From contig JALCCK010000048.1 of NCBI GenBank assembly GCA_022640795.1, positions 1-21,927 on the forward strand: DNA of 21,927 bases, written 5' to 3'. Positions 1,152 to 21,660 of this stretch are shown here, in pieces. The notes under the pieces are model-generated. The model was not told the origin of the DNA, searched no databases, and worked only from the letters and a program-made list of their open reading frames with translations. A program made the position numbers and the translations under genes. Positions within the stretch are counted from its first letter, which is position 1; every line of letters begins with the position of its first letter. This DNA is from Treponema sp. GTDB lineage: Bacteria > Spirochaetota > Spirochaetia > Treponematales > Treponemataceae.

Positions 1152-2534
1152 ATGGACCCATCGAGTTTAAAAAAGAATTGCCGGACGGTACCTGGTTCCG
1201 TTACGGATATGACTGAAGGATCTCCCGGCAGGCATATCCTTTTTTTTGCTGTTCCGCTTGTTTTGGGAAATCTGTTCCAGCAGTTGTATTCTATGGTAGA
1301 TGCGGTTATCGTCGGCCGGTATCTTGGTCCGCCGGCACTTGCTGCAGTCGGAGCAACCGGCCCTCTGAATTTTTTTGTACTCGGCTTTGTGTTCGGTCTT
1401 ACATCGGGATATGCGGTCATCGTTTCGCAGGAATTCGGTTCCGGAAATATGGAACGGATGCGTCATTCCGTCGCCGAGAATATAAAATTGAACGCGATAT
1501 CTGCGTTAATTTTTACTGTGATTTCTCTTTCGACTGCCGGCAGGGTACTTTCACTGATGAATACTCCGGAACAGATTATCGGTAATTCGTCCGTATATAT
1601 AACGATCCTGTTTACCGGTATTACGCCGGTCATCGTGTATAACGGAGCGGCATGCATCATGAAAGCGCTGGGAGATGGAAAAACACCGCTCTATTTTCTG
1701 ATTCTTTCTTCCTTTATGAATATTGCGCTGGATATTTTCTTTATCAAAACAGCAGGTTGGGGGATTGCCGGCGCTGCGTGGGCGACGGTTATTTCGCAGG
1801 CGTTTTCGGGAATTGCGGCTGTTGTCTACATAGGAAGAAAATTTCCGCTGCTGCGTATGAAAAGAACTGATTTCCGGTTTGATCCGGCCTATGCGGTACG
1901 GCATATTGCTATCGGCCTTCCGATGGCGCTGCAGTTTTCGATTACTGCCGTCGGTGTTGTAGTGATGCAGGCTGCGCTCAACAGATTCGGCGAAATAATT
2001 ATTGCCGGCTTTTCCGCAGCACAGAAAATTGAAAATCTGCTCATGTCTGTTCCCGCATCCATCGGTCAGGCAATGGCGACCTATTCCGGCCAGAATATGG
2101 GAGCCGGAAACATAGACCGTATAAGAAAAGGAACGTATACAACGGTATATGCATCTATCGTTCTGGCTGCTCTTGCAACGGTATTTGCCTATCTGTGCAG
2201 CGAACCGATACTATGGCTTTTTCTTGACGGAAAAACAGTGGAAAACAATACCGTAGTGGCACGGGCTGTCGAATACATGAAATTTTCATCGATATTCTAT
2301 ATTCCGCTTTTTCTTATCTTTGTCTACCGGAATTCTCTGCAGGGCATGGGAAAAACCTTTATGCCGATGATGGGTGGTGTCATGGAACTTACGGCACGAG
2401 GTTTCGCTTCGCTCTTTTTCGTCATTCCGTTCGGATACTTCGGAGCGTATGCGGCAAATCCGCTTTCGTGGACTGCTGCGTGCCTGCTGTTGATGGTCTC
2501 CTTTTCTGTTATCATGCATCGGTATCCGAAATAG
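1152..2534 (+). CDS. MATE-family multidrug/oligosaccharidyl-lipid efflux transporter
   Basis: 460 aa, polytopic and hydrophobic. The N-terminal motif FFAVPLVLGNLFQQLYSMVDAVIVGRYLGPPALAAVG is typical of NorM/DinF MATE proteins. There is no clear RBS at 1152, so the true start may be the internal Met at 1209 (MTEGSPGRHILFF). Confidence 0.85.
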   Translation: MDPSSLKKNCRTVPGSVTDMTEGSPGRHILFFAVPLVLGNLFQQLYSMVDAVIVGRYLGPPALAAVGATGPLNFFVLGFVFGLTSGYAVIVSQEFGSGNMERMRHSVAENIKLNAISALIFTVISLSTAGRVLSLMNTPEQIIGNSSVYITILFTGITPVIVYNGAACIMKALGDGKTPLYFLILSSFMNIALDIFFIKTAGWGIAGAAWATVISQAFSGIAAVVYIGRKFPLLRMKRTDFRFDPAYAVRHIAIGLPMALQFSITAVGVVVMQAALNRFGEIIIAGFSAAQKIENLLMSVPASIGQAMATYSGQNMGAGNIDRIRKGTYTTVYASIVLAALATVFAYLCSEPILWLFLDGKTVENNTVVARAVEYMKFSSIFYIPLFLIFVYRNSLQGMGKTFMPMMGGVMELTARGFASLFFVIPFGYFGAYAANPLSWTAACLLLMVSFSVIMHRYPK

Positions 2535-2774
2535 AAAGATGTACGACGTTACGTACAGCCTCGTTTTTATTCATGCTGTATGACGGTATTCATTCTATCT
2601 GCCATTTGTGAAAATGTACAGGCATTTCAGAGACGGACAACTGAATACGAGGCAAAACGATGATTTATCTATCCTGATTTCTGATAATCCGCAGTCAAAA
2701 AATATTAAAAAATACTGTAGATATTAAAAAATACTTGCAAAATATTAATCTTAGCTGTAGAGTGTACAGTAATA

Positions 2775-3275
2775 ATGAATTATACCAACTATTTTTCAAT
2801 AGTTTTAAAACGTTTTGAACGTTATTACACGGTTACTCCGAATGTTTCGTATGGAGGTATTCTCTTTGATAGTGATGCAGTATTTTCTGTGCATGAAGAT
2901 CAAACGGTTCTTTTTAAAGAAAATGTGATGGACTATTCCAACAGTATCGAACATTGTCTGTTTAAATATGAGCCGGAACTTTCTGTTGACGGAGTACGGT
3001 CGATAGTTGAAAACTTTCCGGTATTCAGCAGAGAACTTACGAACCCTTCACGGTATCATAAATGTACCGTCATCAAGGTTATTCTGGTGACGGACGGCTT
3101 TACATCCCCGCAGGATGAACAGTTCTGTACCCGAATGACAAAAAAATTTTATTTTTCGAAAGTTCATGCATTTTATCTGCACGGATGGACGGAAGGATAT
3201 CTTTATATAGAAGATATCAGTCATAATAACGAATATAAAAACCGAAGGGCGGGAAAATCGTCTTACAGGATATAA
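2775..3275 (+). CDS. Hypothetical protein (166 aa) in a low-GC islet; no recognisable domain
   Basis: A single long ORF sits in an AT-rich segment (2535-3345) flanked by approximately 48% GC genes. An upstream -35/-10-like pair is present (ttgcaa 2737-2742 / tagagt about 17 nt later). No signal peptide or known motif was recognised. Confidence 0.4.
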   Translation: MNYTNYFSIVLKRFERYYTVTPNVSYGGILFDSDAVFSVHEDQTVLFKENVMDYSNSIEHCLFKYEPELSVDGVRSIVENFPVFSRELTNPSRYHKCTVIKVILVTDGFTSPQDEQFCTRMTKKFYFSKVHAFYLHGWTEGYLYIEDISHNNEYKNRRAGKSSYRI

Positions 3276-3345
3276 AAAACAGTATGCATTTTGAAGGCGG
3301 CGTGTGCAAAACTGCCCTATGTTGAGATAAAGAGGAGATATAAAA

Positions 3346-5025
3346 ATGAACTCGCTTGTTTTACTGATTGGAGGAATAATTATATTCCTTGTTGCTTTTT
3401 TTACGTATGGCTCCTGGCTGGCAAAGAAATGGAGATTAAACAACGATAATGTGACACCGGCTCATAGACTGGAAGACGGACAGGATTATGTTCCGTCCGA
3501 TAAAGCCGTCATATTCGGTCATCATTTTTCTTCAATTGCCGGTGCCGGTCCTATTACCGGTCCTATTCTTGCCGCAGGATTCGGATGGCTTCCTGCCTAT
3601 TTGTGGATAGTTCTCGGTAGTATTTTTATGGGCGGCGTACATGATTTCGGTTCTCTGGTTGCTTCGCTCAGAAATGACGGAAAGAGTATCGGTGAAATCA
3701 TAAAAAAGAATATTTCACCCAAGACCAAAGTTATTTTCAACTGGTACGCATGGCTTACGCTTGCGCTCGTCGTTGCGGCGTTTACGGATATTTGTGCAAA
3801 AACATTTGCCTATAATCCTGCCGGCGGGTCGCTGGTCGGTGCTCAGGCAGGTACTGCTTCTGTTCTGTTTATTATACTTGCTTTCGTATTTGGATTCTTC
3901 CGCAATCGACTGAAAGCCGGTCTCGGCATTTCAACGCTGCTGGGTGTTATTTTCCTGTGCGGTGCGATTGCCCTCGGATATTTCTTTCCGGTAATAAAAC
4001 TGAGTGTAAACGGATGGCGAGTTGCACTGATTATATATATTGTTTTAGCCTCTGTTCTTCCGGTGTGGCTGTTGCTGCAGCCGCGGGATTATCTCTGTTC
4101 ATTTCTTTTGTACGGAATGCTTGCAGGTGCTGTTCTCGGGATTTTTATCAAACATCCGGCTATTACACTTGCTCCGGTGACATCGTTCACGGTGAAAGGT
4201 CAGACGCTGTTTCCGTATGTATTTATTACAATTGCCTGCGGGGCGATTTCAGGATTTCATTCACTTGTCAGTTCCGGTACAACGTCGAAACAGCTTAACA
4301 AAGAACGTCCTGATGCAAAAATTATCGGTTATGGTTCAATGCTTCTCGAGGGGTTCATGGCTATTGTAGCACTTATCGCTGTCGGCTATATAGCGACGGG
4401 TACGGGATCCGGATTGAAAGGCACACCGGTAGAAATTTTTGCAAACGGCGTATCATGGTTTATGACAGGTTTCGGATTAAATCCCCGGCTTGGTAAAGTC
4501 TTTATCACGCTTGCTTTTTCAGCATTTGCGTTGACCAGTCTCGATACGGCGACTCGTATCGGACGGTATACGATGCAGGAACTCGGTGCGGGAACAGCGA
4601 ACGAAGACGGTTCACAGAAAACGGGAATACTTGCTGCAGTCGGCCGTTTTTGTGCAAACCGCTATGTAGCGACACTGCTCACGGTCGGCCTTGGCGTCGT
4701 AATGCTGGTTGCAGGATATGCAAAGATATGGCCGATTTTCGGTTCGGCAAACCAGCTGCTTGCTGCGCTTGCCCTGCTTGCAATAACTGCCTGGAATTTG
4801 AAAGAAGGCAGACGTTCATGGGAAACCATTATACCGCTTGTTTTCATGTTTGCGGTTACGCTGACCGCTCTTTTCCTTATTATCAGGAAAAATCTTTCCG
4901 GTGCGGAAGGGGCATACGTACCGCTTGCAATAATCGGTATATTCCTTGCAGTTCTTGCAGTTGCACAATTAATAGAAGCGATTGTCGTATTCGGGAAAGA
5001 GAAAAAGAACGCGGTAACGCAGTAA
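3346..5025 (+). CDS. cstA: Carbon starvation protein A family transporter (CstA; peptide/pyruvate transporter)
   Basis: 559 aa polytopic membrane protein. The motifs HHFSSIAGAGPITGPILAAGFGWLPAYLWIVLGSIFMGGVHDF and GSANQLLAALAL are hallmark CstA sequences. A strong RBS aaagaggagatataaaaATG is present. Confidence 0.9.
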   Translation: MNSLVLLIGGIIIFLVAFFTYGSWLAKKWRLNNDNVTPAHRLEDGQDYVPSDKAVIFGHHFSSIAGAGPITGPILAAGFGWLPAYLWIVLGSIFMGGVHDFGSLVASLRNDGKSIGEIIKKNISPKTKVIFNWYAWLTLALVVAAFTDICAKTFAYNPAGGSLVGAQAGTASVLFIILAFVFGFFRNRLKAGLGISTLLGVIFLCGAIALGYFFPVIKLSVNGWRVALIIYIVLASVLPVWLLLQPRDYLCSFLLYGMLAGAVLGIFIKHPAITLAPVTSFTVKGQTLFPYVFITIACGAISGFHSLVSSGTTSKQLNKERPDAKIIGYGSMLLEGFMAIVALIAVGYIATGTGSGLKGTPVEIFANGVSWFMTGFGLNPRLGKVFITLAFSAFALTSLDTATRIGRYTMQELGAGTANEDGSQKTGILAAVGRFCANRYVATLLTVGLGVVMLVAGYAKIWPIFGSANQLLAALALLAITAWNLKEGRRSWETIIPLVFMFAVTLTALFLIIRKNLSGAEGAYVPLAIIGIFLAVLAVAQLIEAIVVFGKEKKNAVTQ

Positions 5026-5371
5026 TGGTACTGTAATATAATCACAAAATTTTTTGCTCCCTGTTTTCATCCCACGGTTTATTTTTCATTATAGGCCGCG
5101 GGATGTTTTAAATGTCCGGAAATCGGGATTATTCTTTTTCAAAACCAGTCTGTTTTTTTAAAAAAAACAGTCGTAGAATTTTCATATACTGTTCCTTCTC
5201 TATCCGGTATATGGCCTTGCTTTTTGAAGTAGCCGGATGTATAGTAAAATAATTATATTGAAATAGTCAGGCACTTTCAAAATCGGATGAGGTTTGAAAG
5301 AAAAATTTTTATATAGTCAGTGAGTAACTGCCTGAAAACTGCTCCTGATTTTATTATACGAGGAGGTATAT

Positions 5372-5749
5372 ATGCCGTCTTTTGCGGACCCCTTTGCAGG
5401 GAATGTAAACCGAAAAATGACAAAGGAAGAACTGATTCAGGCTGTTCGTCTGGATATCGCCGGAGAACTGGAAGCTATCTATCTGTATGATTCACATGTA
5501 CAGGCAACCGACAACGAAGCTGCGAAAGCCGTTATTTCCGATATCCGCGACGAAGAAAAGGCGCATGTCGGAGAATTGATGACGCTTCTGCGGACTCTTG
5601 ATCCGAAAGAGGCTGATTTCTTTCTTTCCGGAGAGGGAGAAGTAAAGGAACTTCTCGAAAAACTTGATACGAAACCGGAGACACCCGGCGCGGAACCGGA
5701 AAATTTGTTGAATGGCAATTCTCCGACCGTCGGCAGTCTGCGCGATTAA
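5372..5749 (+). CDS. Encapsulated ferritin-like protein (EncFtn/Flp cargo) with C-terminal cargo-loading peptide
   Basis: 125 aa. The ferritin-like core contains AGELEAIYLYDSH...DIRDEEKAHVGEL, matching the EncFtn Glu/Glu/ExxH metal-site pattern. A long E/K/P-rich linker follows, then the C-terminal TVGSLRD, which matches the family-1 encapsulin targeting-peptide consensus (S/T-x-GSL-K/R). It lies directly upstream of the shell gene, with a strong RBS gaggaggtatatATG. Confidence 0.8.
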   Translation: MPSFADPFAGNVNRKMTKEELIQAVRLDIAGELEAIYLYDSHVQATDNEAAKAVISDIRDEEKAHVGELMTLLRTLDPKEADFFLSGEGEVKELLEKLDTKPETPGAEPENLLNGNSPTVGSLRD

Positions 5750-5787
5750 CCATATATCGATTAGCTATTTTTATAGAGAGGTGTGTT

Positions 5788-6603
5788 ATGAGCTATTTAT
5801 CAAGAGAAAATGTAGATTTGCCCGACGGGGTATGGACGAAAATAGATGCTGCTGTCGTGGAAACTGCACGGCGGCTGCTTACCGGCCGGCGTTTTCTTCC
5901 TGTTTACGGACCACTTGGAATAGGTACTGAAAGTATACCGGTAGATACAGCCGGGGCGCCGGAAGAAATTTCAAAGGATGGCCTCACGGTGACCAAAGGA
6001 AGAGTTTTTAGGGAGATTCCTCTTATTTACAACGACTTTCAGCTTCTGTCACGGGATTTGGAATATTCTGTAAAAACAGGGCAGCCCGCGTCTTTCACTT
6101 CCGTTATGTCTGCTGCCGAACTTTGTGCAATAAATGAAGATAAAATGATCTATTTCGGTAGTACAGCTTTGGGGTACGAAGGATTACTGACAGCGAAGGG
6201 TTCGCAGAAAATTTCAAGAAAAGACTGGAAGACCGGTGAGAATGCTTTTTCAGATGTGGCTTCCGGTATAGAACTTCTGGCTGAAAAAAATTTATACGGT
6301 CCGTATGCACTGATTCTAAGTCCTGATCTTGCTGTGGAATTAGAGCGGCTGCAACCGTCGACCGGACTTTTAGAGATAGACCGTGTGGGTAAACTGGTAA
6401 ACAAACACATATATGTTGCTCCGGTGCTTGGAAAGAAAAAAGCACTGCTGGTTTCCGCTGATGCCGGCAGCATGGATCTTGTTATCGGCCAGGATATGAT
6501 AACGGCCTATCTGGAACAGAAAGATTTGAATCATTATTTCAGAATTCTTGAAACGATTTTGCTTCGGATAAAGCGGAAAGAAGCGATTGTTGTTTTTGAA
6601 TAG
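5788..6603 (+). CDS. Family 1 encapsulin nanocompartment shell protein (HK97 fold; linocin M18-like)
   Basis: 271 aa. The N-terminus YLSRENVDLPDGVWTKIDAAVVETARRLLTGRRFLPVYGPLGIG aligns closely with the T. maritima encapsulin N-terminus ([42 protein letters not shown]). The C-terminal segments GPYALILSPDL and LVIGQDM...ILETILLRIK also fit. RBS is agagagg. Confidence 0.9.
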   Translation: MSYLSRENVDLPDGVWTKIDAAVVETARRLLTGRRFLPVYGPLGIGTESIPVDTAGAPEEISKDGLTVTKGRVFREIPLIYNDFQLLSRDLEYSVKTGQPASFTSVMSAAELCAINEDKMIYFGSTALGYEGLLTAKGSQKISRKDWKTGENAFSDVASGIELLAEKNLYGPYALILSPDLAVELERLQPSTGLLEIDRVGKLVNKHIYVAPVLGKKKALLVSADAGSMDLVIGQDMITAYLEQKDLNHYFRILETILLRIKRKEAIVVFE

Positions 6604-6667
6604 AGTGAGGCACTTTTAAAAGTCAGACGAGTTTTGGAAGTGCAAATTTACGGTAGATTTTGTAAAG

Positions 6668-6700
6668 CCAATTGCGAAAGTTAACAGACTTTTGCAATTG
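6668..6700. promoter_or_regulatory. Dyad-symmetric element (gCCAATTGCGAAAG-N8-CTTTTGCAATTGac) upstream of rubrerythrin; candidate operator or RNA hairpin
   Basis: The arms 6668-6680 and 6689-6700 are reverse complements at 12/14 positions, and each arm contains a CAATTG palindrome. The element lies about 55 nt upstream of the rubrerythrin start. Confidence 0.3.
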
Positions 6701-6754
6701 ACTCAGAATATTATTTTACTTAGTTATTATTTTTTTTCCTTGTGGAGGTTAAAA

Positions 6755-7309
6755 ATGGCTGTTAAGAATGCAATGACTGACAGTTTTCTCCATTCTGCTT
6801 ACAGTGGAGAAAGTATGGCCCATATGCGATATCTGATTTGGGGTGATATTGCTGAAAAGGAAGGTTTTCCCAATATAGCCCGCCTGTTTAAAGCTATCGC
6901 TTTTGCCGAAAGCATACATGCCGGTAATCATTTCAGAGAAATCGACGGCGCTACCGCTGATGCGCTGGTCCCTGCGAACGGTGTTTTCGGAGTCGGAAAA
7001 ACGGCAGAGAATCTTCAGGGTGCTATTGACGGAGAACTTTTCGAGGTTCATCAGATGTATCCTGTTTATTTGAATACTGCAGAATTCCAGCATGAAGCAG
7101 GGGCAAAGCGGTCTTTTCATGCTGCTCTTGAAGTTGAAAAGATACATGCGGATCTTTTCGGTCGAGCTCTGGCTGCAGTGAAGGACGGACATGATATGGA
7201 ACTGCAGTCGATTTATATTTGTCCTGTCTGCGGACACACAGTACTGGATGTCCCTCCTGAAAAATGTCCGATTTGCGGAACTGAACGCGAAAAATATATA
7301 AAATTCTGA
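6755..7309 (+). CDS. rbr: Rubrerythrin (ferritin-like diiron domain plus C-terminal rubredoxin-like CxxC...CxxC domain)
   Basis: The protein contains ...YSGESMAHMRYLIWGDIAEKEGF...AESIHAGNHF...GELFEVHQMYP...ALEVEKIHADLF... and the C-terminal CPVCGH...CPICG motif. The start was chosen at the MAVKNAMTD Met at 6755 because a GGAGG RBS lies 6 nt upstream. The track ORF's extra 21 hydrophobic codons from 6692 have no RBS. Confidence 0.9.
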   Translation: MAVKNAMTDSFLHSAYSGESMAHMRYLIWGDIAEKEGFPNIARLFKAIAFAESIHAGNHFREIDGATADALVPANGVFGVGKTAENLQGAIDGELFEVHQMYPVYLNTAEFQHEAGAKRSFHAALEVEKIHADLFGRALAAVKDGHDMELQSIYICPVCGHTVLDVPPEKCPICGTEREKYIKF

Positions 7310-7359
7310 TCTGAATACTTTTTCTTTGCAGCGGGTATTTTAAAATTACCGTCGCAGAA

Positions 7360-7399
7360 GCCTTCCCTGAGCATGCAGATGTCATGGGGAGGCTTTTTT
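7360..7399 (+). terminator. Putative intrinsic terminator after rubrerythrin
   Basis: An approximately 8-bp stem GCCTTCCC / GGGGAGGC (with one G-U pair) flanks an 18-nt loop and is followed by TTTTTT (7394-7399). It begins 50 nt after the rbr stop codon. Confidence 0.4.
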
Positions 7400-7613
7400 A
7401 TCACTGCACATTGAGAGTGACTGTTACTATGTACAAAAATGTCGTTTCCGGTTAAAACCACCCACAAATATGTAGTAATTTTTTTATAGAACGTGATTCA
7501 TCATTCTTCCCTATTTTTTTATCAGTCGCCGGCAGAGACTTTTTTTGCTTGTTTTTGCGGCAATAACAGATATTTTCTCCTTAATTTAATCAGACTGTTT
7601 CTCTTTTTTCTGA

Positions 7614-8546
<933 letters not shown>

Positions 8547-15297: not shown

Positions 15298-16573
15298 TAC
15301 AGCAAAAGACAGTAAATTCGGAAATCATCCGTGTTTTAATGCAGCCGTCAGACATTCGACGGGCCGTATCCACCTGCCGGTGGCACCGGAATGCAATATT
15401 CAGTGCAATTTCTGTAACAGAAAGTACGACTGTGTCAATGAATCACGACCGGGCGTTACGAGTTCGATGCTGACGCCGGATCAGGCCGTATCGTACCTCG
15501 ATAAGGTGCTTGAAATAGTTCCCGCCATCAGTGTCGTCGGTATTGCCGGGCCGGGAGATCCGTTCGCGACACCGGAGGAAACGCTCGCAACGCTTGAAGC
15601 GGTCGGGAAAAAATATCCCGGAAAACTGCTCTGCCTTGCGTCGAACGGACTGAATGTTGCTCCGTATGTCGACCGTATAGCGAAACTCAACGTGTCGCAC
15701 ATGACTATTACGGTTAACGCGGTCGATCCCGGAATCGGAGCGCAGATATACGGGTGGATCAGATCCGGCCCTCACGTGAGCCGCGGTGCAGAGGGAGCCC
15801 GCGTTCTGCTTGAAAAGCAGACGGAAACGATCCGCGCCCTGCATGAAGCCGGTATTCTGGTCAAAATAAACACCGTCGTTATCCCCGGAATAAACGATCA
15901 TCACGTTGCGGCGATCGCCGGATACTGTAAAAAGCTCGGTGCCGATATTCAGAATTGTATTCCGATGATGCATGTTGAAGGTTCAGCTTTTGAAAACCGG
16001 GAGGGTCCCGAAGAAAAACAGATGCTCGAAATCAGGAAACAGAGCAGCCGGTATCTTGACCAGATGTGCCATTGCGCGCGCTGCAGGGCGGACGCGGTCG
16101 GACAAATCGGAGAAGAGAATAACGAGAAAATTGTAGAACTGCTTGCCACTGCATCACGTATCGGGCCGACAAAACAGCGTCCGTACGTTGCGGTTGCCAG
16201 TATGGAAGGTCTGCTGGTCAATCAGCATCTGGGAGAAGCGACGGAACTCTGGGTTTTCAAGCCGGGTGAAGATGATGATTCGGAACTTGTTTCCGCACGT
16301 GCAACTCCCGTTCCAGGCGGCGGTGACGACCGGTGGGAACAGCTGGCGGATGCATTCGGCGACTGCTTTGCGATTATCTGTGCCGGTTGCGGTAAAGCTC
16401 CGCTGCGGGTACTTGCGCAGCACAATCTGCCGGTCATCGTTATGGAAGGACTTATTGAGGAAGGAACAAAAGCGCTGTTTCGCGGTCAGTCCGTTCCGAA
16501 ATTATATATGCGGCCGGCGGGCGTCTGCAGTCTCGGAAAAAGCTGCGGCGGCAGCGGAACCGGCTGCGACTGA
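15290..16573 (+). CDS. nifB: FeMo-cofactor biosynthesis radical-SAM protein NifB with C-terminal NifX/NafY-like domain
   Basis: HPCFNAAVRHSTGRIHLPVAPECNIQCNFCNRKYDCVNESRPGVTS is the NifB radical-SAM CxxxCxxC signature. The C-terminal approximately 120 aa (VAVASMEGLLVNQHLGEATELWVF...) resembles the dinitrogenase FeMo-cofactor-binding (NifX-like) domain. Confidence 0.95.
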   Translation: MYSTAKDSKFGNHPCFNAAVRHSTGRIHLPVAPECNIQCNFCNRKYDCVNESRPGVTSSMLTPDQAVSYLDKVLEIVPAISVVGIAGPGDPFATPEETLATLEAVGKKYPGKLLCLASNGLNVAPYVDRIAKLNVSHMTITVNAVDPGIGAQIYGWIRSGPHVSRGAEGARVLLEKQTETIRALHEAGILVKINTVVIPGINDHHVAAIAGYCKKLGADIQNCIPMMHVEGSAFENREGPEEKQMLEIRKQSSRYLDQMCHCARCRADAVGQIGEENNEKIVELLATASRIGPTKQRPYVAVASMEGLLVNQHLGEATELWVFKPGEDDDSELVSARATPVPGGGDDRWEQLADAFGDCFAIICAGCGKAPLRVLAQHNLPVIVMEGLIEEGTKALFRGQSVPKLYMRPAGVCSLGKSCGGSGTGCD

Positions 16574-16617
16574 ACTTTGAAATGAGCCGCTTTGCTGCGC
16601 GGCTGGGGAGAAAACTG

Positions 16618-16923
16618 ATGAAAAAACCGGCACATCACGTGTTTGTCTGCGGATCTTTCCGTGTTAACGGAGCGCCGCAGGGTACCTGTAATAAACTGGG
16701 ATCCATGAATCTCATGCAGTATTTTGAAGAAGAAATAGGAGACCGCGGTATTGATGCGGCCGTGTCGGGCACCAGCTGTCTCAAACTGTGCGACCGCGGA
16801 CCTGCCGTTATCGTATATCCGGAAAACTGGTGGTACGGACATATCGACAGCGAAGATGCCGTCGATGCTGTCCTCGATTCAATAGAAAAAGGCGTTCCCG
16901 ATCCGGATCATCTGCTTGCATAA
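16618..16923 (+). CDS. Thioredoxin-like [2Fe-2S] ferredoxin (homolog of the C. pasteurianum 2Fe-2S Fd / Azotobacter FeS-I family)
   Basis: MKKPAHHVFVCGSFRVNGAPQGTCNK...SGTSCLKLCDRGPAVIVYPENWWYGHI closely parallels the Cp 2Fe-2S Fd (HHIFVC...GFC...[22 protein letters not shown]), with the same four Cys spacing (C11, C24, C56, C60). The start was taken at 16618, which has a GGGGAGAAAA RBS; the track ORF begins at 16582. Confidence 0.85.
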   Translation: MKKPAHHVFVCGSFRVNGAPQGTCNKLGSMNLMQYFEEEIGDRGIDAAVSGTSCLKLCDRGPAVIVYPENWWYGHIDSEDAVDAVLDSIEKGVPDPDHLLA

Positions 16924-16949: not shown

Positions 16950-18014
16950 CTAGTTTTTAAGAAAAAAAAGTTCCGCTGCAGGAAGGCAGAGCCGCTGCGG
17001 TTTTCCGTTTTTATTTTCGGGATGCTGCAGAACGTTCCCGCTGTCGACGGAAATTTCACGGTCCAGCGGAACAGTACCGTTTTCAGAGAAGAGATATTCC
17101 GATACACTGAACGGAGAATTCCGGTATTCCGCCGCTTTGAACGTGAAGCAGTTTTCTGTTTCGTCCGGTAATGGTGGTCTGATATAATGCGCACGGATTC
17201 CGATATATTCGGTATCGGCGGGTATCGGCCGGTGAACGGAAAGTGATAGTCCCCAGTCCTTTACGAATATCGTATGATCGTCCGTTTTTTCAAATGATGC
17301 GATATTTTTACAGCCGGTCAGTTTTGCTGCCGTTATGTTTTGCGGATTTGCAAAGATTTCCGAACTGGAACCGGCTCTGCAGATTTTTCCTTTTGAGAGA
17401 ATCTGCAGGTTCTTACAAATTCTGTATACTTCATCCCTGTTGTGAGAAACGAACAGCAGTGTTCCCTTAAAGTCGGCAAGCAGATCCATGGTACTCTGTT
17501 CGACCTGCTGCTTAAGAAAGGCATCAAGTGCTGAAAATGGTTCATCCAGCATGACAATATCCGGTTGCAGGACCATCATGCGGGCGAGTGCTGCCCGCTG
17601 CTGCTGTCCTCCGCTCAGTTCCGCGGGTTTTCTGTCGGCAAGCGCCGCAATACCGAAATGTTCAAGTATTTCGGCAGTTCTTTTTTTTCGTTCGGCTTTT
17701 TGAAATTTATGCAGTACAATACTGATATTTTGAGCAATTGTCATTGTCGGGAAAAGTGCATAATTCTGAAAAAGAAATCCGCAGTGCCGGTTCCTCGGTT
17801 TTGTATTGATGCGCCGCTCGGAATCGAATACGGTACGACCGTTTATGATGATGTATCCGCTGTCGGGCGTTTCAATTCCCGCAATACACTTGAGTGTCAT
17901 GCTTTTTCCGCAGCCGGACGCACCGAGCAGTCCGACCGGTATATTGTCTGCTGTGAATGAAACATCGAGCGTGAATTCTGCGAGCTGTTTTTTTATGGAT
18001 AGTTCTATACTCAT
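16950..18014 (-). CDS. modC: Molybdate ABC transporter ATP-binding protein ModC (with C-terminal TOBE/Mop domain)
   Basis: Walker A GASGCGKSMTLKCIAGIE, the LSGGQQQRAALAR signature, Walker B MLDEPFSALD, and an approximately 120-aa C-terminal extension typical of ModC. The ATGA overlap with the modB stop indicates coupling. Confidence 0.85.
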   Translation of the reverse strand: MSIELSIKKQLAEFTLDVSFTADNIPVGLLGASGCGKSMTLKCIAGIETPDSGYIIINGRTVFDSERRINTKPRNRHCGFLFQNYALFPTMTIAQNISIVLHKFQKAERKKRTAEILEHFGIAALADRKPAELSGGQQQRAALARMMVLQPDIVMLDEPFSALDAFLKQQVEQSTMDLLADFKGTLLFVSHNRDEVYRICKNLQILSKGKICRAGSSSEIFANPQNITAAKLTGCKNIASFEKTDDHTIFVKDWGLSLSVHRPIPADTEYIGIRAHYIRPPLPDETENCFTFKAAEYRNSPFSVSEYLFSENGTVPLDREISVDSGNVLQHPENKNGKPQRLCLPAAELFFLKN

Positions 18015-18682
18015 ATTCCTGTTTTTTTCCGCTGTTTACCGCTGCCCGCAAAGTTCATCCCGATAATGGTACAGAATGATATTCCGACGATTATAATGAC
18101 CCAGAGCAGCGCTCTTCCCATATTGTCACTGTACGCTGCTGTCCAGATTGCGATCGGAATTGTTTCCGTTCTGCCTGGTATATCACCGGCCAGCATAAGC
18201 GTTGCGCCGAATTCTCCGAGTGCACGGGCGAAGGCCAGAATTGTTCCTGCTATAATACCCGGTAAAGAAACCGGAATCATTATTTTTGCAAAAATAAGTC
18301 CCTCTTTGAGGCCCAGCGTTCTGGCTGCGTTGAGAATGGATGTATCGATCTGCTCGAAGGCGGCTCTGACGGTACGGTACATCAGCGGAAATGCTACGAC
18401 GGATGCGGCTACGACGGTTCCCTTCCAGTCGAAAATTATTTTTATACCGACGCTGTTCAGCAGCCGCCCGACGGGGCTGCGGGTTCCGAATATGCAGAGC
18501 AGAAAAAATCCGAGTACAGTCGGCGGCAGAACAAGCGGCAGTGTGCAGAGTGCATCGAGCAATGCCCGTGATCTTCCTTTCAGTTTTACAACGCCCCAGG
18601 CGACAAGCGTTCCGGTAACAACCGCAAAAACGGTTGCCAGAAATGAGGCCTTCAGAGAAATGAAAAGTGGGGACCAGTCCAT
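18011..18682 (-). CDS. modB: Molybdate ABC transporter permease ModB
   Basis: 223 aa, 5-6 TM. The EAA-like loop ...LGLKEGLIFAKIMIPVSLPGIIAG is typical of ModB/CysT-type permeases. Its start overlaps the modA stop (TAATG). Confidence 0.85.
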   Translation of the reverse strand: MDWSPLFISLKASFLATVFAVVTGTLVAWGVVKLKGRSRALLDALCTLPLVLPPTVLGFFLLCIFGTRSPVGRLLNSVGIKIIFDWKGTVVAASVVAFPLMYRTVRAAFEQIDTSILNAARTLGLKEGLIFAKIMIPVSLPGIIAGTILAFARALGEFGATLMLAGDIPGRTETIPIAIWTAAYSDNMGRALLWVIIIVGISFCTIIGMNFAGSGKQRKKTGI

Positions 18683-19479
18683 TATTTTACGCTTATAAAT
18701 CCGTACTTGGTGAAAATATCCAGTGCATCTGAGCTTTCAAGGAATGCAAGAAAATCTTTTGCAGCCTGTTCATGCTCCGTCGTCTTTACGATGGCAGCAG
18801 GGTATACGATAGGACGGTGCGATCCGTCGGGTGCAGTGGCAACTACCGTAACGCTGTCGGAAATCGCGGCATCGGTAGAATAGACAGCTCCCGCCTGCAC
18901 ATTGCCCTGTTCAACATACGAAAGGACCTGTCTGACGTCTTTTCCGAATACCAGTTTTCCCCCGGATTCTATATTGCCATAGATTCCGAGACTGGTGAAC
19001 ACTTCTTTTGCATAGGAACCGGCCGGAACGCTTGACGGTTCGCCGATCGCCGCCTGGGTGACTTTGTCGCTGTCGACATCGTTAAAAGACGCTATTCCCG
19101 CTGTACTTCCTTTCGGCACGATCAGTACCACTTCGTTTTTCAGGAGATCCGTTTTTGTATCGTTCATGATGAGATCCTCATCCATGAGTGCGGTCATATG
19201 TTTTTCGGAGGCAGAAAAGAACAGATCGGCAGGAGCGCCCTGTTCGATTTGTTTACGCAGTGCACCTGACGATGCGTAGGTCGGCGTTACCTTTACTGCA
19301 GGATGATTCGTTCCGTACAGCGTAATGCATTCGTTCATAGCATTGGTAAGACTCGCCGCCGCCGCGATAATGATTTCCTGTTTCGGTTCGGTTTGTTTGT
19401 TTGCATCTTTACTGCCGCCGGCAAAAAGACCTGCCGCGAATCCGATACTAATTGCTATTGCCGTAATTTTTTTTAACAT
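18682..19479 (-). CDS. modA: Molybdate ABC transporter periplasmic substrate-binding protein ModA
   Basis: N-terminal signal peptide MLKKITAIAISIGFAAGLFAGGS, followed by ...IIIAAAASLTNAM...YASSGAL..QIEQGAPADLFFSA, typical of ModA. The start is at the MLKK Met (19479) with a GGAGG RBS; the track start at 19506 lacks an RBS. Confidence 0.85.
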   Translation of the reverse strand: MLKKITAIAISIGFAAGLFAGGSKDANKQTEPKQEIIIAAAASLTNAMNECITLYGTNHPAVKVTPTYASSGALRKQIEQGAPADLFFSASEKHMTALMDEDLIMNDTKTDLLKNEVVLIVPKGSTAGIASFNDVDSDKVTQAAIGEPSSVPAGSYAKEVFTSLGIYGNIESGGKLVFGKDVRQVLSYVEQGNVQAGAVYSTDAAISDSVTVVATAPDGSHRPIVYPAAIVKTTEHEQAAKDFLAFLESSDALDIFTKYGFISVK

Positions 19480-19505
19480 AGAATACCTCCTGTGGTTTCT
19501 ATACA

Positions 19506-19534
19506 AGGTTACACTACTGAATATCAGAGGTCAA
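19506..19534 (-). promoter_or_regulatory. Candidate sigma-70-type promoter for modABC (minus strand: TTGACC-17nt-TAACCT)
   Basis: Reading the minus strand: TTGACC (plus 19529-19534), a 17-nt spacer, then TAACCT (plus 19506-19511), about 30 nt upstream of the modA ATG. The resulting 5' UTR is short. Confidence 0.3.
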
Positions 19535-19598
19535 CTACATTTTTGTAGGATTCGATAAATATTTTTTTTGTATTTTTATTCATGAATAAAATAAAGTC

Positions 19599-19664: not shown

Positions 19665-20078
19665 ATGAATAACGATATAACAGAACAGGCAATTGAAGAC
19701 TGGGATAAAATGTACGAGGCGGGCAAACAGTATCGGGCTACCGCACATAAAGCCGTAGACCGTCCTGCCGTTTTTACTCCGTCGATTATCCGTAATGTTG
19801 CAGCTATGGGAATAGAATCCTATTTCATGGCTTTTTTTATGTATCAGGGAATCCTGCCGCGCAATCATACGATGCAGGATTTACTTGCTGATGCAAAAAA
19901 ACTGTTTTCAGTTGACCCTGAACTGGAGCATATACTGCTTAAAATAGACGACCAGATGCAGCTCTGTTCTCTTGAGAATTTTAAATTGACTGATGCGGTT
20001 TCTGAAGACATCCCGGAATTCCTCAAGGCTGTCGACATGGTTGCCGCCATTGCCGGCAGTGAGATTGGTAATGCCTGA
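19665..20078 (+). CDS. Hypothetical protein, 137 aa, predicted all-alpha, no recognised domain; translationally coupled to nifV
   Basis: ORF with a GAGGT RBS 5 nt upstream. Its stop TGA (20076-20078) overlaps the nifV ATG (20071) by 8 nt. No motif was recognised with confidence; a weak HEPN-like impression is not supported by an Rx4-6H motif. Confidence 0.5.
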   Translation: MNNDITEQAIEDWDKMYEAGKQYRATAHKAVDRPAVFTPSIIRNVAAMGIESYFMAFFMYQGILPRNHTMQDLLADAKKLFSVDPELEHILLKIDDQMQLCSLENFKLTDAVSEDIPEFLKAVDMVAAIAGSEIGNA

Positions 20079-21660
20079 CAGGGGGCTGCGGCGGATCCGC
20101 GTATTTGACACAACTTTGCGGGACGGCGATCAAACGGCAGGCTTTGCTTTTTCTTCGGCATCCCAGAAGGAATCGCTTGCTGATCTGATCGATTCCTATG
20201 GTGTCGACTGTATTGAGGCCGGTTTTCCGTGTGCGTCTCCGATGGAATTTGAGAGTTGTTCCCGTATTGCCGCTAACCACCTGCATGCCGAAATCGCCGT
20301 TATGACACGCTGCAGGGAAGCCGACATAGATAAAACCGTAGCCGTTTTTCGTGGAATGAAGGAACCGAAAAGTGTGCTGCATCTTTCGCTTCCGGTAAGT
20401 TCCGTCCAGATGGAATATAAACTGGAACTGGAACCGGCTGCGATGCAGGCGCTCATGATAAAATGCATACGCCGTGCAACGGGCTACGTTCAAACTGTTG
20501 AAATGGGGTTCGAAGATGCGTCCAGAGCCGATCCTGAATTTCTCTCTGAATGCTGCCGGCTGGCGATCCAGAGCGGTGCACGCATTATAAATATAGCCGA
20601 TACCACCGGCAGTTTACTGCCGGATCAGACGGCGGCGCTGGTCCGTTTTCTTTCTGATGCAGCCCCTGAATTTTCATCGGGTGCCGCGGTCCTGAGCGTA
20701 CACTGTCATAACGATATGGGGCTTGCGCTCGCGTCCGCACTTGCTGCAGTAGAAGCCGGTGCCGGTCAGCTCGAAGTTACCGCAGCGGGCATCGGCGAAC
20801 GGTGCGGTAATGTTCCGCTGGAGCAGCTTGCCTATGTTCTGGACGAATATAGCGGACGGTTCGGAATACGGACAAATCTTCGCCCGGAGCGAACAGCGGC
20901 TGTCTGCAGGACGCTGTTTACGTTTCTGGGTACCGGACTGTCTCCTTTTCGGCCGGTAACAGGCTGGAACACGGATTCTCATGCGTCCGGAATGCATCAG
21001 CAGGGAATTCGTGCAAATGCGGATACGTATATTGTTCATACTGCTGAAAAATACGGTATGGTACACCGCCGGTTCATTCTGAGCAGGCATTCGGGGACCT
21101 CCGGACTGCGTACTGTTGCGGAACAATTGTTTTCAGCCTGTCCCGGGTTGCAGCGTTTTCTGACTTCCCGGACGGCAGCCGCCGCCCTGCTAGAATCAGT
21201 AAAATCGGCCGGCGCGGACTGCAGTGCGGTCGGTATTACGGAATTGTGTAAAATACTGTACGCGCAGCAGTTACTTGTAAAGCCGCCCTATGGCTGCAGC
21301 GGTCTGTCGGTAGAGAACAGCTTTGCCGGTCGGACACGAACTGCTGTCGTGCATATCGAAATTACGGACGGGACAGAAAACTGCCGGATCTTTGACCGCT
21401 CGGGAACGTCTGCCGAAGAATGCTGCAGGCAGATTGCCGTCAGTATTCTCGATAAACCGCTTGACGTCAAAACCGTCAGCTGGTCAGGTTACAGGGCAGC
21501 GGAAATCAGTTCGTCAGAAAAAGTATGCGTGTACATGGAAATACAGACATCCGCACATGCATATGCCGTTTCACGGAACGGAACTTTCAGGGAATTAGTT
21601 TATTTCGAATGTCTGCTGGATGTTGTTAATGCCGAACTCTCTTCAGCTGCTTCTTCCTGA
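20071..21660 (+). CDS. nifV: Homocitrate synthase NifV (LeuA/IPMS/HCS family) with long C-terminal LeuA-like domain
   Basis: IRVFDTTLRDGDQTAGF matches the DRE-TIM metallolyase N-terminal motif, and HCHNDMGLALASALAAVEAGAGQLEVTAAGIGERCGN matches the HxH...GIGERAGN motif. Context is a nif cluster. 529 aa from the internal Met at 20071; the track ORF start at 19993 overlaps the upstream gene and lacks an RBS. Confidence 0.8.
   Translation: MPDRGLRRIRVFDTTLRDGDQTAGFAFSSASQKESLADLIDSYGVDCIEAGFPCASPMEFESCSRIAANHLHAEIAVMTRCREADIDKTVAVFRGMKEPKSVLHLSLPVSSVQMEYKLELEPAAMQALMIKCIRRATGYVQTVEMGFEDASRADPEFLSECCRLAIQSGARIINIADTTGSLLPDQTAALVRFLSDAAPEFSSGAAVLSVHCHNDMGLALASALAAVEAGAGQLEVTAAGIGERCGNVPLEQLAYVLDEYSGRFGIRTNLRPERTAAVCRTLFTFLGTGLSPFRPVTGWNTDSHASGMHQQGIRANADTYIVHTAEKYGMVHRRFILSRHSGTSGLRTVAEQLFSACPGLQRFLTSRTAAAALLESVKSAGADCSAVGITELCKILYAQQLLVKPPYGCSGLSVENSFAGRTRTAVVHIEITDGTENCRIFDRSGTSAEECCRQIAVSILDKPLDVKTVSWSGYRAAEISSSEKVCVYMEIQTSAHAYAVSRNGTFRELVYFECLLDVVNAELSSAASS

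Follow-up and report, generated by a model that had tools for sequence, protein, structure and literature searches.

The 21,927-nt stretch of Treponema sp. DNA analysed here (contig JALCCK010000048.1 of assembly GCA_022640795.1, hereafter the window) encodes on its + strand a ferritin-like EncFtn protein (125 aa, 5372-5749), a family-1 encapsulin shell (271 aa, 5788-6603) and a rubrerythrin (Rbr; 184 aa, 6755-7309), and these are followed by nifH (7713-8546, + strand; TIGR01287, 456 bits), the first gene of a nifH-I1-I2-D-K-E-N-B cluster. The three genes had been proposed to provide the neighbouring nitrogenase with an iron reservoir of its own or with protection from oxidants (the original prediction). 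Our comparison of both partners with their relatives makes a different reading likely, namely that the window holds a canonical family-1 encapsulin of the ferritin-like protein (Flp)/EncFtn type with an accompanying Rbr, that these genes form a transcription unit of their own, and that their position beside nifH reflects a lineage-specific rearrangement and not membership in the nif system. The linkage is missing from the nearest relatives of either partner, and the regulatory signals on the two sides are separate.

The window encodes a family-1 encapsulin and its EncFtn cargo

The 125-aa protein matches the NCBIfam family EncB_fam (NF058679) with 159.8 bits (cutoff 90) and the Pfam family EncFtn-like (PF22277) with 29.1 bits (cutoff 27), and its gene is preceded by a ribosome-binding site, GAGGAGG, at 5361-5367. 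Among solved structures it comes closest to M. xanthus EncC (7s8t, E 2e-17) and the EncFtn domain of P. furiosus (5n5e, E 4e-16), and it aligns with both across the ferroxidase motifs. The ligands of the ferroxidase centre (Glu, Tyr and a Glu-x-x-His motif) are present, and when 81 distinct homologues, each taken from a shell-adjacent gene, are aligned, residues E32, E34, Y39, E61, E62, H65 and E68 are invariant (100%); the ferroxidase-centre residues of R. rubrum EncFtn are E32/Y39/E62/H65 (PMC5012862). The EncFtn metal-site pattern claimed for this protein is thus borne out.

The protein ends in ...NGNSPTVGSLRD, and residues 119-125 (TVGSLRD, 5726-5746, + strand) correspond to a cargo-loading (targeting) peptide. 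Nearly all of the 81 homologues carry T[VI]GSL at or near the C-terminus, with column conservation of 98% for T, 83% for V, 100% for G, 90% for S and 96% for L, and the ~25 residues before the motif form a non-conserved linker. As TVGSL is the published targeting motif of family-1 encapsulins (PMC8346489), the sequence conservation supports TVGSLRD as a genuine targeting-peptide motif, in agreement with the tail assignment made earlier.

The shell gene begins 38 bp after the EncFtn gene on the same + strand. Its product scores 264.2 bits against the NCBIfam family-1 encapsulin equivalog (NF041155, cutoff 100) and 222.1 bits against PF04454 (cutoff 24.3), the latter match covering aa 1-257 of 271, so that the encapsulin and EncFtn profiles all lie above their cutoffs and the encapsulin identity originally assigned to the shell holds. 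The good alignment to the T. maritima shell on which that assignment had leaned was, however, overstated: the window shell matches T. maritima (3dkt) with 52 bits (E 4e-13), compared with 191 bits and 37% identity over 262 aa for M. xanthus EncA (4pt2/7s20) and 171 bits for the Q. thermotolerans shell. M. xanthus EncA forms T=3, the Q. thermotolerans shell T=4 and the T. maritima shell T=1 particles. Because the window shell is far closer to the T=3 and T=4 shells than to that of T. maritima, it appears to belong to an EncA/Q. thermotolerans-like branch and the compartment may be larger than T=1.

The closest solved structures to the shell are encapsulins without exception, and a literature search by PDB code on these structures (9i8e, 9fy6, 9zw3 and others) returned engineering papers only. 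An AlphaFold2 model built from a 28-sequence alignment was too poor for a fold search (mean predicted local distance difference test score 55.5, predicted template modelling score 0.45), and we infer an HK97-type fold for the shell from its homology to solved shells.

EncFtn and shell form a conserved core with optional detoxifying enzymes

The encapsulin side was sampled with 80 species-representative loci encoding relatives of the shell (L012-L091), which come mainly from Clostridia and other Bacillota and include a single Treponema as well as a few Caldisericota and Selenomonadaceae. In 80/80 the gene immediately before the shell is that of EncFtn, which is the architecture described for family-1 systems (PMC8346489). 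Right after the shell, 45 of the 80 loci encode a superoxide reductase and/or a rubrerythrin; desulfoferrodoxin (Dfx; for example L045, 10847-11221) stands directly after the shell in 39/80, often with a rubrerythrin behind it. Rubrerythrins 67-80% identical to that of the window are encoded downstream of the shell and on the same strand in 20 of the loci, and in the further Treponema relative L009. Among these 20 the gene is directly adjacent to the shell in 6, ~500 bp away in 8 and ~3.1 kb away in 4, and the ~500-bp gaps hold a 124-aa Dfx-type superoxide reductase. Given the EncFtn and superoxide reductase/Rbr counts, the conserved unit is EncFtn-shell plus an optional set of anaerobe enzymes that detoxify reactive oxygen species (ROS), a composition in keeping with the accepted role of capturing Fenton-active iron while peroxide and superoxide are removed.

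The two closest shell relatives, with 70-71% identity, are themselves Treponema lineages. L009 carries EncFtn-shell-Rbr with an 80-bp spacer before Rbr, and UBA1793 carries EncFtn-shell only, with no Rbr at the locus. Archaeal Flp-fusion encapsulins frequently share an operon with rubrerythrins (PMC8346489), and in the encapsulin literature examined an operon association with ROS enzymes is described only for these archaeal systems, the enzymes there being rubrerythrins. That 45 of the 80 species in this clade of anaerobe encapsulins encode a ROS-detoxifying enzyme behind the shell adds comparative-genomic support for the recently reported functional partnership between rubrerythrin and encapsulin under oxidative stress.

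Rubrerythrin is an accessory protein of the module

The window Rbr matches PF02915 with 88.2 bits and the rubredoxin-like domain PF21349 with 34.9 bits, well above the curated thresholds, and consists of an N-terminal di-iron four-helix domain and a C-terminal Cys4 domain (CPVCG...CPICG). Its reading frame can be extended to a TTG at 6692, but the start is very probably the ATG at 6755, as this codon has a GGAGG ribosome-binding site and gives a protein of 184 aa, the length shared by homologues and by the NCBI gene call. No GSL-type targeting motif was found at either terminus, the protein starting with MAVKNAMT and ending in ...GTEREKYIKF straight after the Cys4 domain. This agrees with the earlier description of a rubrerythrin that follows the shell and lacks a targeting peptide, and Rbr is therefore regarded as an accessory protein and not as cargo.

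If the mechanism follows that of characterised homologues, EncFtn would assemble into ring-shaped ferroxidase oligomers, which the C-terminal TVGSL peptide would anchor on the inside of a self-assembling shell with the HK97 fold. Fe(II) would then enter through the shell pores, be oxidised and be stored inside as an inert ferric mineral, the deposition of which would remove Fenton-active iron, while the downstream Rbr would act as a free, non-encapsulated peroxidase reducing H2O2. EncFtn-shell and Rbr would together make up an iron-sequestration and ROS-defence module of a kind typical of anaerobes.

An extension of this scheme, and no strict rival to it, is that Rbr physically partners the nanocompartment, as a bacterial version of the P. 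furiosus Rbr-encapsulin super-assembly. In P. furiosus, oxidised Rbr tetramers are reported to form tubules that enclose EncFtn-encapsulin particles under oxidative stress (OSIT-VLP, bioRxiv 10.1101/2025.03.19.643997). The best solved homologue of the window Rbr is P. furiosus Rbr (1nnq, E 2e-57, full-length alignment), the cargo is close to the P. furiosus EncFtn domain, the window rbr adjoins the shell gene, and an Rbr is encoded after the shell in 20 of the 80 relatives as well. However, simple co-regulation of two ROS/iron defence functions explains this linkage equally well, many relatives have superoxide reductase instead of, or besides, Rbr, and UBA1793 does without Rbr at the locus. 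The tubules have moreover been reported for one archaeon only, and the window Rbr carries a 14-residue insertion compared to the P. furiosus protein. We regard a physical super-assembly in the window species as a tentative and rather unlikely addition to the scheme. The insertion falls at residues ~64-77 (DGATADALVPANGV...), and by eye the L009 Rbr has a similar segment at this position.

The 150-bp spacer between shell and rbr is strongly structured (ΔG -49.5 kcal/mol, z -5.7), and folding together with an inverted-repeat search places two hairpins in it at 6610-6643 and 6666-6703 (6610-6703 overall, + strand), the second of which is a palindrome with 16-nt arms, AGCCAATTGCGAAAGT / ACTTTTGCAATTGACT. 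This feature, which is absent from the 80-bp spacer of L009, may act as an operator or in processing or attenuation.

The linkage to nif is not conserved on either side

Both sides of the junction were followed into their relatives. On the encapsulin side, the genes downstream of the module in the two closest shell relatives, L009 and UBA1793, encode GDPD, MatE and transport proteins, and neither locus contains nif genes. On the nif side, the three nearest clusters (L092, L093 and L095, the last annotated as Treponema sp.) are syntenic with the window from nifH through nifV, and their NifD proteins are 88, 88 and 78% identical to that of the window, the 78% belonging to L095. Upstream of nifH one of these clusters has isochorismatase and alginate lyase genes and another NUDIX and Na/H exchanger genes, while L095 encodes a divergent NifA-like GAF-sigma54-HTH activator (6478-7989, minus strand) together with Nif11 and TOBE proteins. 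The position of this activator is held in the window lineage by the encapsulin/rbr module; the activator of the window lineage must therefore be encoded elsewhere.

None of 84 nifH loci carries the encapsulin, EncFtn, this Rbr or Dfx (50/84 with >3 kb of sequence upstream of nifH). The metagenome scan did not include the window's own contigs and served as a nif-side survey only. Among the 80 encapsulin loci, nif genes lie within 10 kb of the encapsulin in a single case, L068, from a Bacillota metagenome-assembled genome (MAG), and in a different arrangement: nifE, a nifN-B fusion, ferredoxin, a split nifV and modABC are followed on one strand by EncFtn-encapsulin, the modC-EncFtn spacer folding into a weak hairpin (z -0.3). 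In L091, the shell of which is closest to that of L068 (85% identity), neither nif nor mod genes are present, although both 10-kb flanks are complete. As a rough estimate, ~0.2 nif overlaps would be expected by chance in 80 loci of ~21 kb from anaerobes, many of them nitrogen-fixing, and the single L068 case is therefore not significant and gives no evidence of selection. The encapsulin-rbr-nifH linkage thus fails the synteny comparison from both directions, an outcome that the original prediction itself took to speak for an incidental adjacency, and the eye-catching adjacency to nifH is not an evolutionarily maintained linkage.

Predicted regulatory signals separate the encapsulin/rbr unit from nif

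A terminator-like hairpin with 15-nt arms, CATCCCACGGTTTAT / ATAGGCCGCGGGATG, identified as an inverted repeat after cstA (5068-5105, + strand), would mark the left boundary of the encapsulin unit. After rbr, an intrinsic-terminator-like hairpin, AAGCCTTCCC...GGGGAGGCTT, is followed by a T-run (7357-7399, + strand); this hairpin has an 18-nt loop and was missed by a simple terminator scan, but was recovered by folding (ΔG -37.1, z -3.2 for the 116-nt region around it) and by the inverted-repeat search. When the spacer is aligned with the nifH upstream regions of the three nearest nif clusters, this hairpin falls outside the shared sequence. We infer from this hairpin that the encapsulin/rbr unit ends at ~7399.

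Beyond this point the spacer carries signals of a different kind. A pair of ACA-N4-TGT palindromes, TACAAAAATGT and CACAAATATGTAG (7432-7475, + strand), is conserved in front of nifH in L092, L093 and L095, even though other genes precede it there, with a consensus of ~CTACAAAAATGTAG and at a distance of ~150-200 bp upstream of a sigma-54 promoter of nifH. The palindrome recurs at 19534-19547 in the modA/nifV intergenic region, and a scan of the window did not find it upstream of EncFtn or rbr. From this distribution the palindromes are probably the enhancer, or binding site, of the clade's NifA-like activator; the classical NifA site is TGT-N10-ACA, unlike these palindromes. The sigma-54 promoter itself, TGGCATATAAGTTGCT (7626-7641, + strand), matches TGGCA-N6-TTGC and is the only exact -24/-12 match in the window; all four aligned nifH upstream regions have identical TGGCA and TTGC cores, and the motif was likewise not found upstream of EncFtn or rbr.

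The nif unit is accordingly predicted to begin at ~7432 and to be transcribed with the help of sigma-54 and a NifA-like activator, the palindromes and promoter upstream of nifH defining the true left boundary of this Treponema-type nif cluster. Because a terminator follows rbr, and because the nif enhancer and sigma-54 signals stand only before nifH and not before EncFtn or rbr, separate transcription and regulation of the encapsulin module and nif are predicted. The module would then be its own transcription unit between the hairpins after cstA and after rbr, and the neighbouring nif cluster would be regulated independently and depend on sigma-54. In scans for Fur and PerR boxes upstream of EncFtn in 81 loci, every match had 2-3 mismatches and lay in AT-rich DNA.

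Does the module support nitrogenase?

Several observations weigh against an incidental adjacency and an independent unit. The adjacency to nif is immediate and co-directional, and the earlier statement that the module abuts the nifH regulatory region with no intervening gene is correct, as the 403-bp rbr-nifH spacer contains no credible gene. The same gene arrangement occurs on 9 metagenome contigs of the window species, which are all 9 contigs with this shell, and at least two strain-level variants keep it (L001-L006, with 94-100% identity between flanking proteins). L068 supplies a second, independent juxtaposition of nif and encapsulin genes, read-through past the rbr terminator may occur, and the best Fur/PerR match upstream of EncFtn in the window, a PerR-like site with 3 mismatches, is unconvincing. 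A functional benefit of the proximity is also plausible by analogy, since nitrogenase is iron-rich and oxidant-labile. A further reason is the precedent of Anabaena, in the heterocysts of which a rubrerythrin protects nitrogenase (PMC6616624).

On these grounds EncFtn, encapsulin and Rbr could be seen as a dedicated iron reservoir and peroxide shield that was recruited beside nifH, and such a link would tie iron supply and oxidative protection to nitrogen fixation and would connect iron storage in nanocompartments with the maturation of nitrogenase. The findings speak against it, however: the linkage is found in none of the 84 nif loci and in one of the 80 encapsulin loci and is missing from the nearest relatives of both partners, L091 lacks nif and mod genes despite a shell 85% identical to that of L068, and with ~0.2 overlaps roughly expected by chance a single case is not significant. 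In addition, the rbr gene is followed by a terminator before nifH is reached, neither the sigma-54 promoter nor the nif enhancer motif stands upstream of the module genes, and none of the retrieved papers that mention both encapsulin and nitrogenase reports a link. With synteny missing on both sides and regulatory signals separate, we consider the proposed nitrogenase reservoir and shield improbable. The broader form of the idea, in which an encapsulin store with its peroxidase was recruited beside nitrogenase/molybdate genes in the window Treponema lineage and independently in L068 and would serve nitrogenase biogenesis as a local iron buffer and oxidant shield, would appear to have an equally slim chance of being correct.

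That the shell is no encapsulin at all but the remnant of an HK97-type prophage major capsid protein has practically no chance of being right, for although encapsulins and phage capsids have the HK97 fold in common (PMC8346489) and the shell has a secondary match to Major_capside (PF09950), this match of 22.4 bits is below the cutoff of 26.8, and a capsid identity is effectively refuted by the family-1 equivalog score, by the cargo gene with its targeting peptide directly upstream of the shell in 80/80 relatives, by the exclusively encapsulin nearest structures and by a window in which Pfam/profile annotation shows no terminase, portal, protease or other phage genes. The canonical Flp/EncFtn-type encapsulin with Rbr, placed beside nif by a rearrangement in this lineage, thus remains the reading we favour.

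Relation to known systems

Family-1 Flp/EncFtn encapsulins are already well described, with 2,383 family-1 systems catalogued (PMC8346489), and the window adds one such operon from an uncultured Treponema, which as found matters little. The closest solved shell (EncA, 191 bits) and cargo (EncC) belong to the M. xanthus system of EncA with EncB/EncC/EncD, the role of which is iron sequestration under oxidative stress (PMC11202242). The two systems are alike in their ferroxidase motif and C-terminal targeting logic. In contrast to M. xanthus, the window encodes only one cargo protein, the gene of which immediately precedes that of the shell; Rbr follows the shell as an accessory gene, and the host is an anaerobic spirochaete.

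The EncFtn-encapsulin operons of R. rubrum, which is a diazotroph, and Haliangium ochraceum have the same cargo-then-shell order as the window, but no rubrerythrin accessory gene has been described for them. Their EncFtn proteins are decameric, with an E32/Y39/E62/H65-type ferroxidase centre and a C-terminal localisation sequence, and the R. rubrum paper reports no nif linkage, the word 'nitrogenase' occurring there only in a reference title (PMC5012862). By sequence, R. rubrum EncFtn is a more distant relative of the window protein (5da5, E 5e-5). The T. maritima encapsulin (maritimacin) combines a family-1 shell with an upstream ferritin-like (Flp) cargo as the window does, its shell being distant, and P. 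furiosus has an EncFtn-encapsulin fusion whereas the bacterial window system has separate cargo and shell genes.

The nearest precedent for nitrogenase support is RbrA of Anabaena, a rubrerythrin peroxidase that guards nitrogenase from H2O2 (PMC6616624). Unlike the window Rbr, it comes without an encapsulin, belongs to an aerobic cyanobacterial lineage, is FNR-dependent and has no linkage to nifH comparable to that seen here. Our literature search found no paper linking encapsulins to nitrogenase or to Treponema.

Other genes in the window

The window proteins are identical to NCBI MAG proteins annotated as Treponema sp. (MCI1209607-615), and neither Rfam nor tRNA scans gave a match anywhere in the window. 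After nifH, Pfam annotation identifies nifI1, nifI2, nifD, nifK, nifE, nifN and nifB on the + strand, ending at 16573. These are followed by a conserved 113-aa open reading frame (ORF) (16582-16923, + strand), by modCBA (16950-19506, minus strand) and by a nifV-like homocitrate synthase (19993-21660, + strand). The 113-aa ORF has no Pfam match and is kept after nifB or nifK in 31 sampled nif loci; a homologue in L068 (39% identity) gives a match to PF01257, the family of thioredoxin-like [2Fe-2S] ferredoxins. Also in L068, nifN and nifB are apparently fused in one 890-aa ORF (1850-4522), and homocitrate synthase (4929-6745) is split into one ORF with an HCS_D2 domain and another with an HMGL domain. 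An ORF of 137-152 aa without a Pfam family overlaps the nifV-like gene just upstream of it in the window (19665-20078) and has counterparts in the nearest nif clusters (L092, 20283-20696; L095, 20149-20607).

Upstream of the encapsulin unit the + strand encodes a LysR regulator (218-1090), a MATE transporter (1152-2534), a DUF8052 protein (2775-3275) and CstA (3346-5025). The region 2501-3500, which spans the DUF8052 gene and its upstream spacer, shows a dip in GC content to 0.37 compared to ~0.45-0.47 in its flanks.

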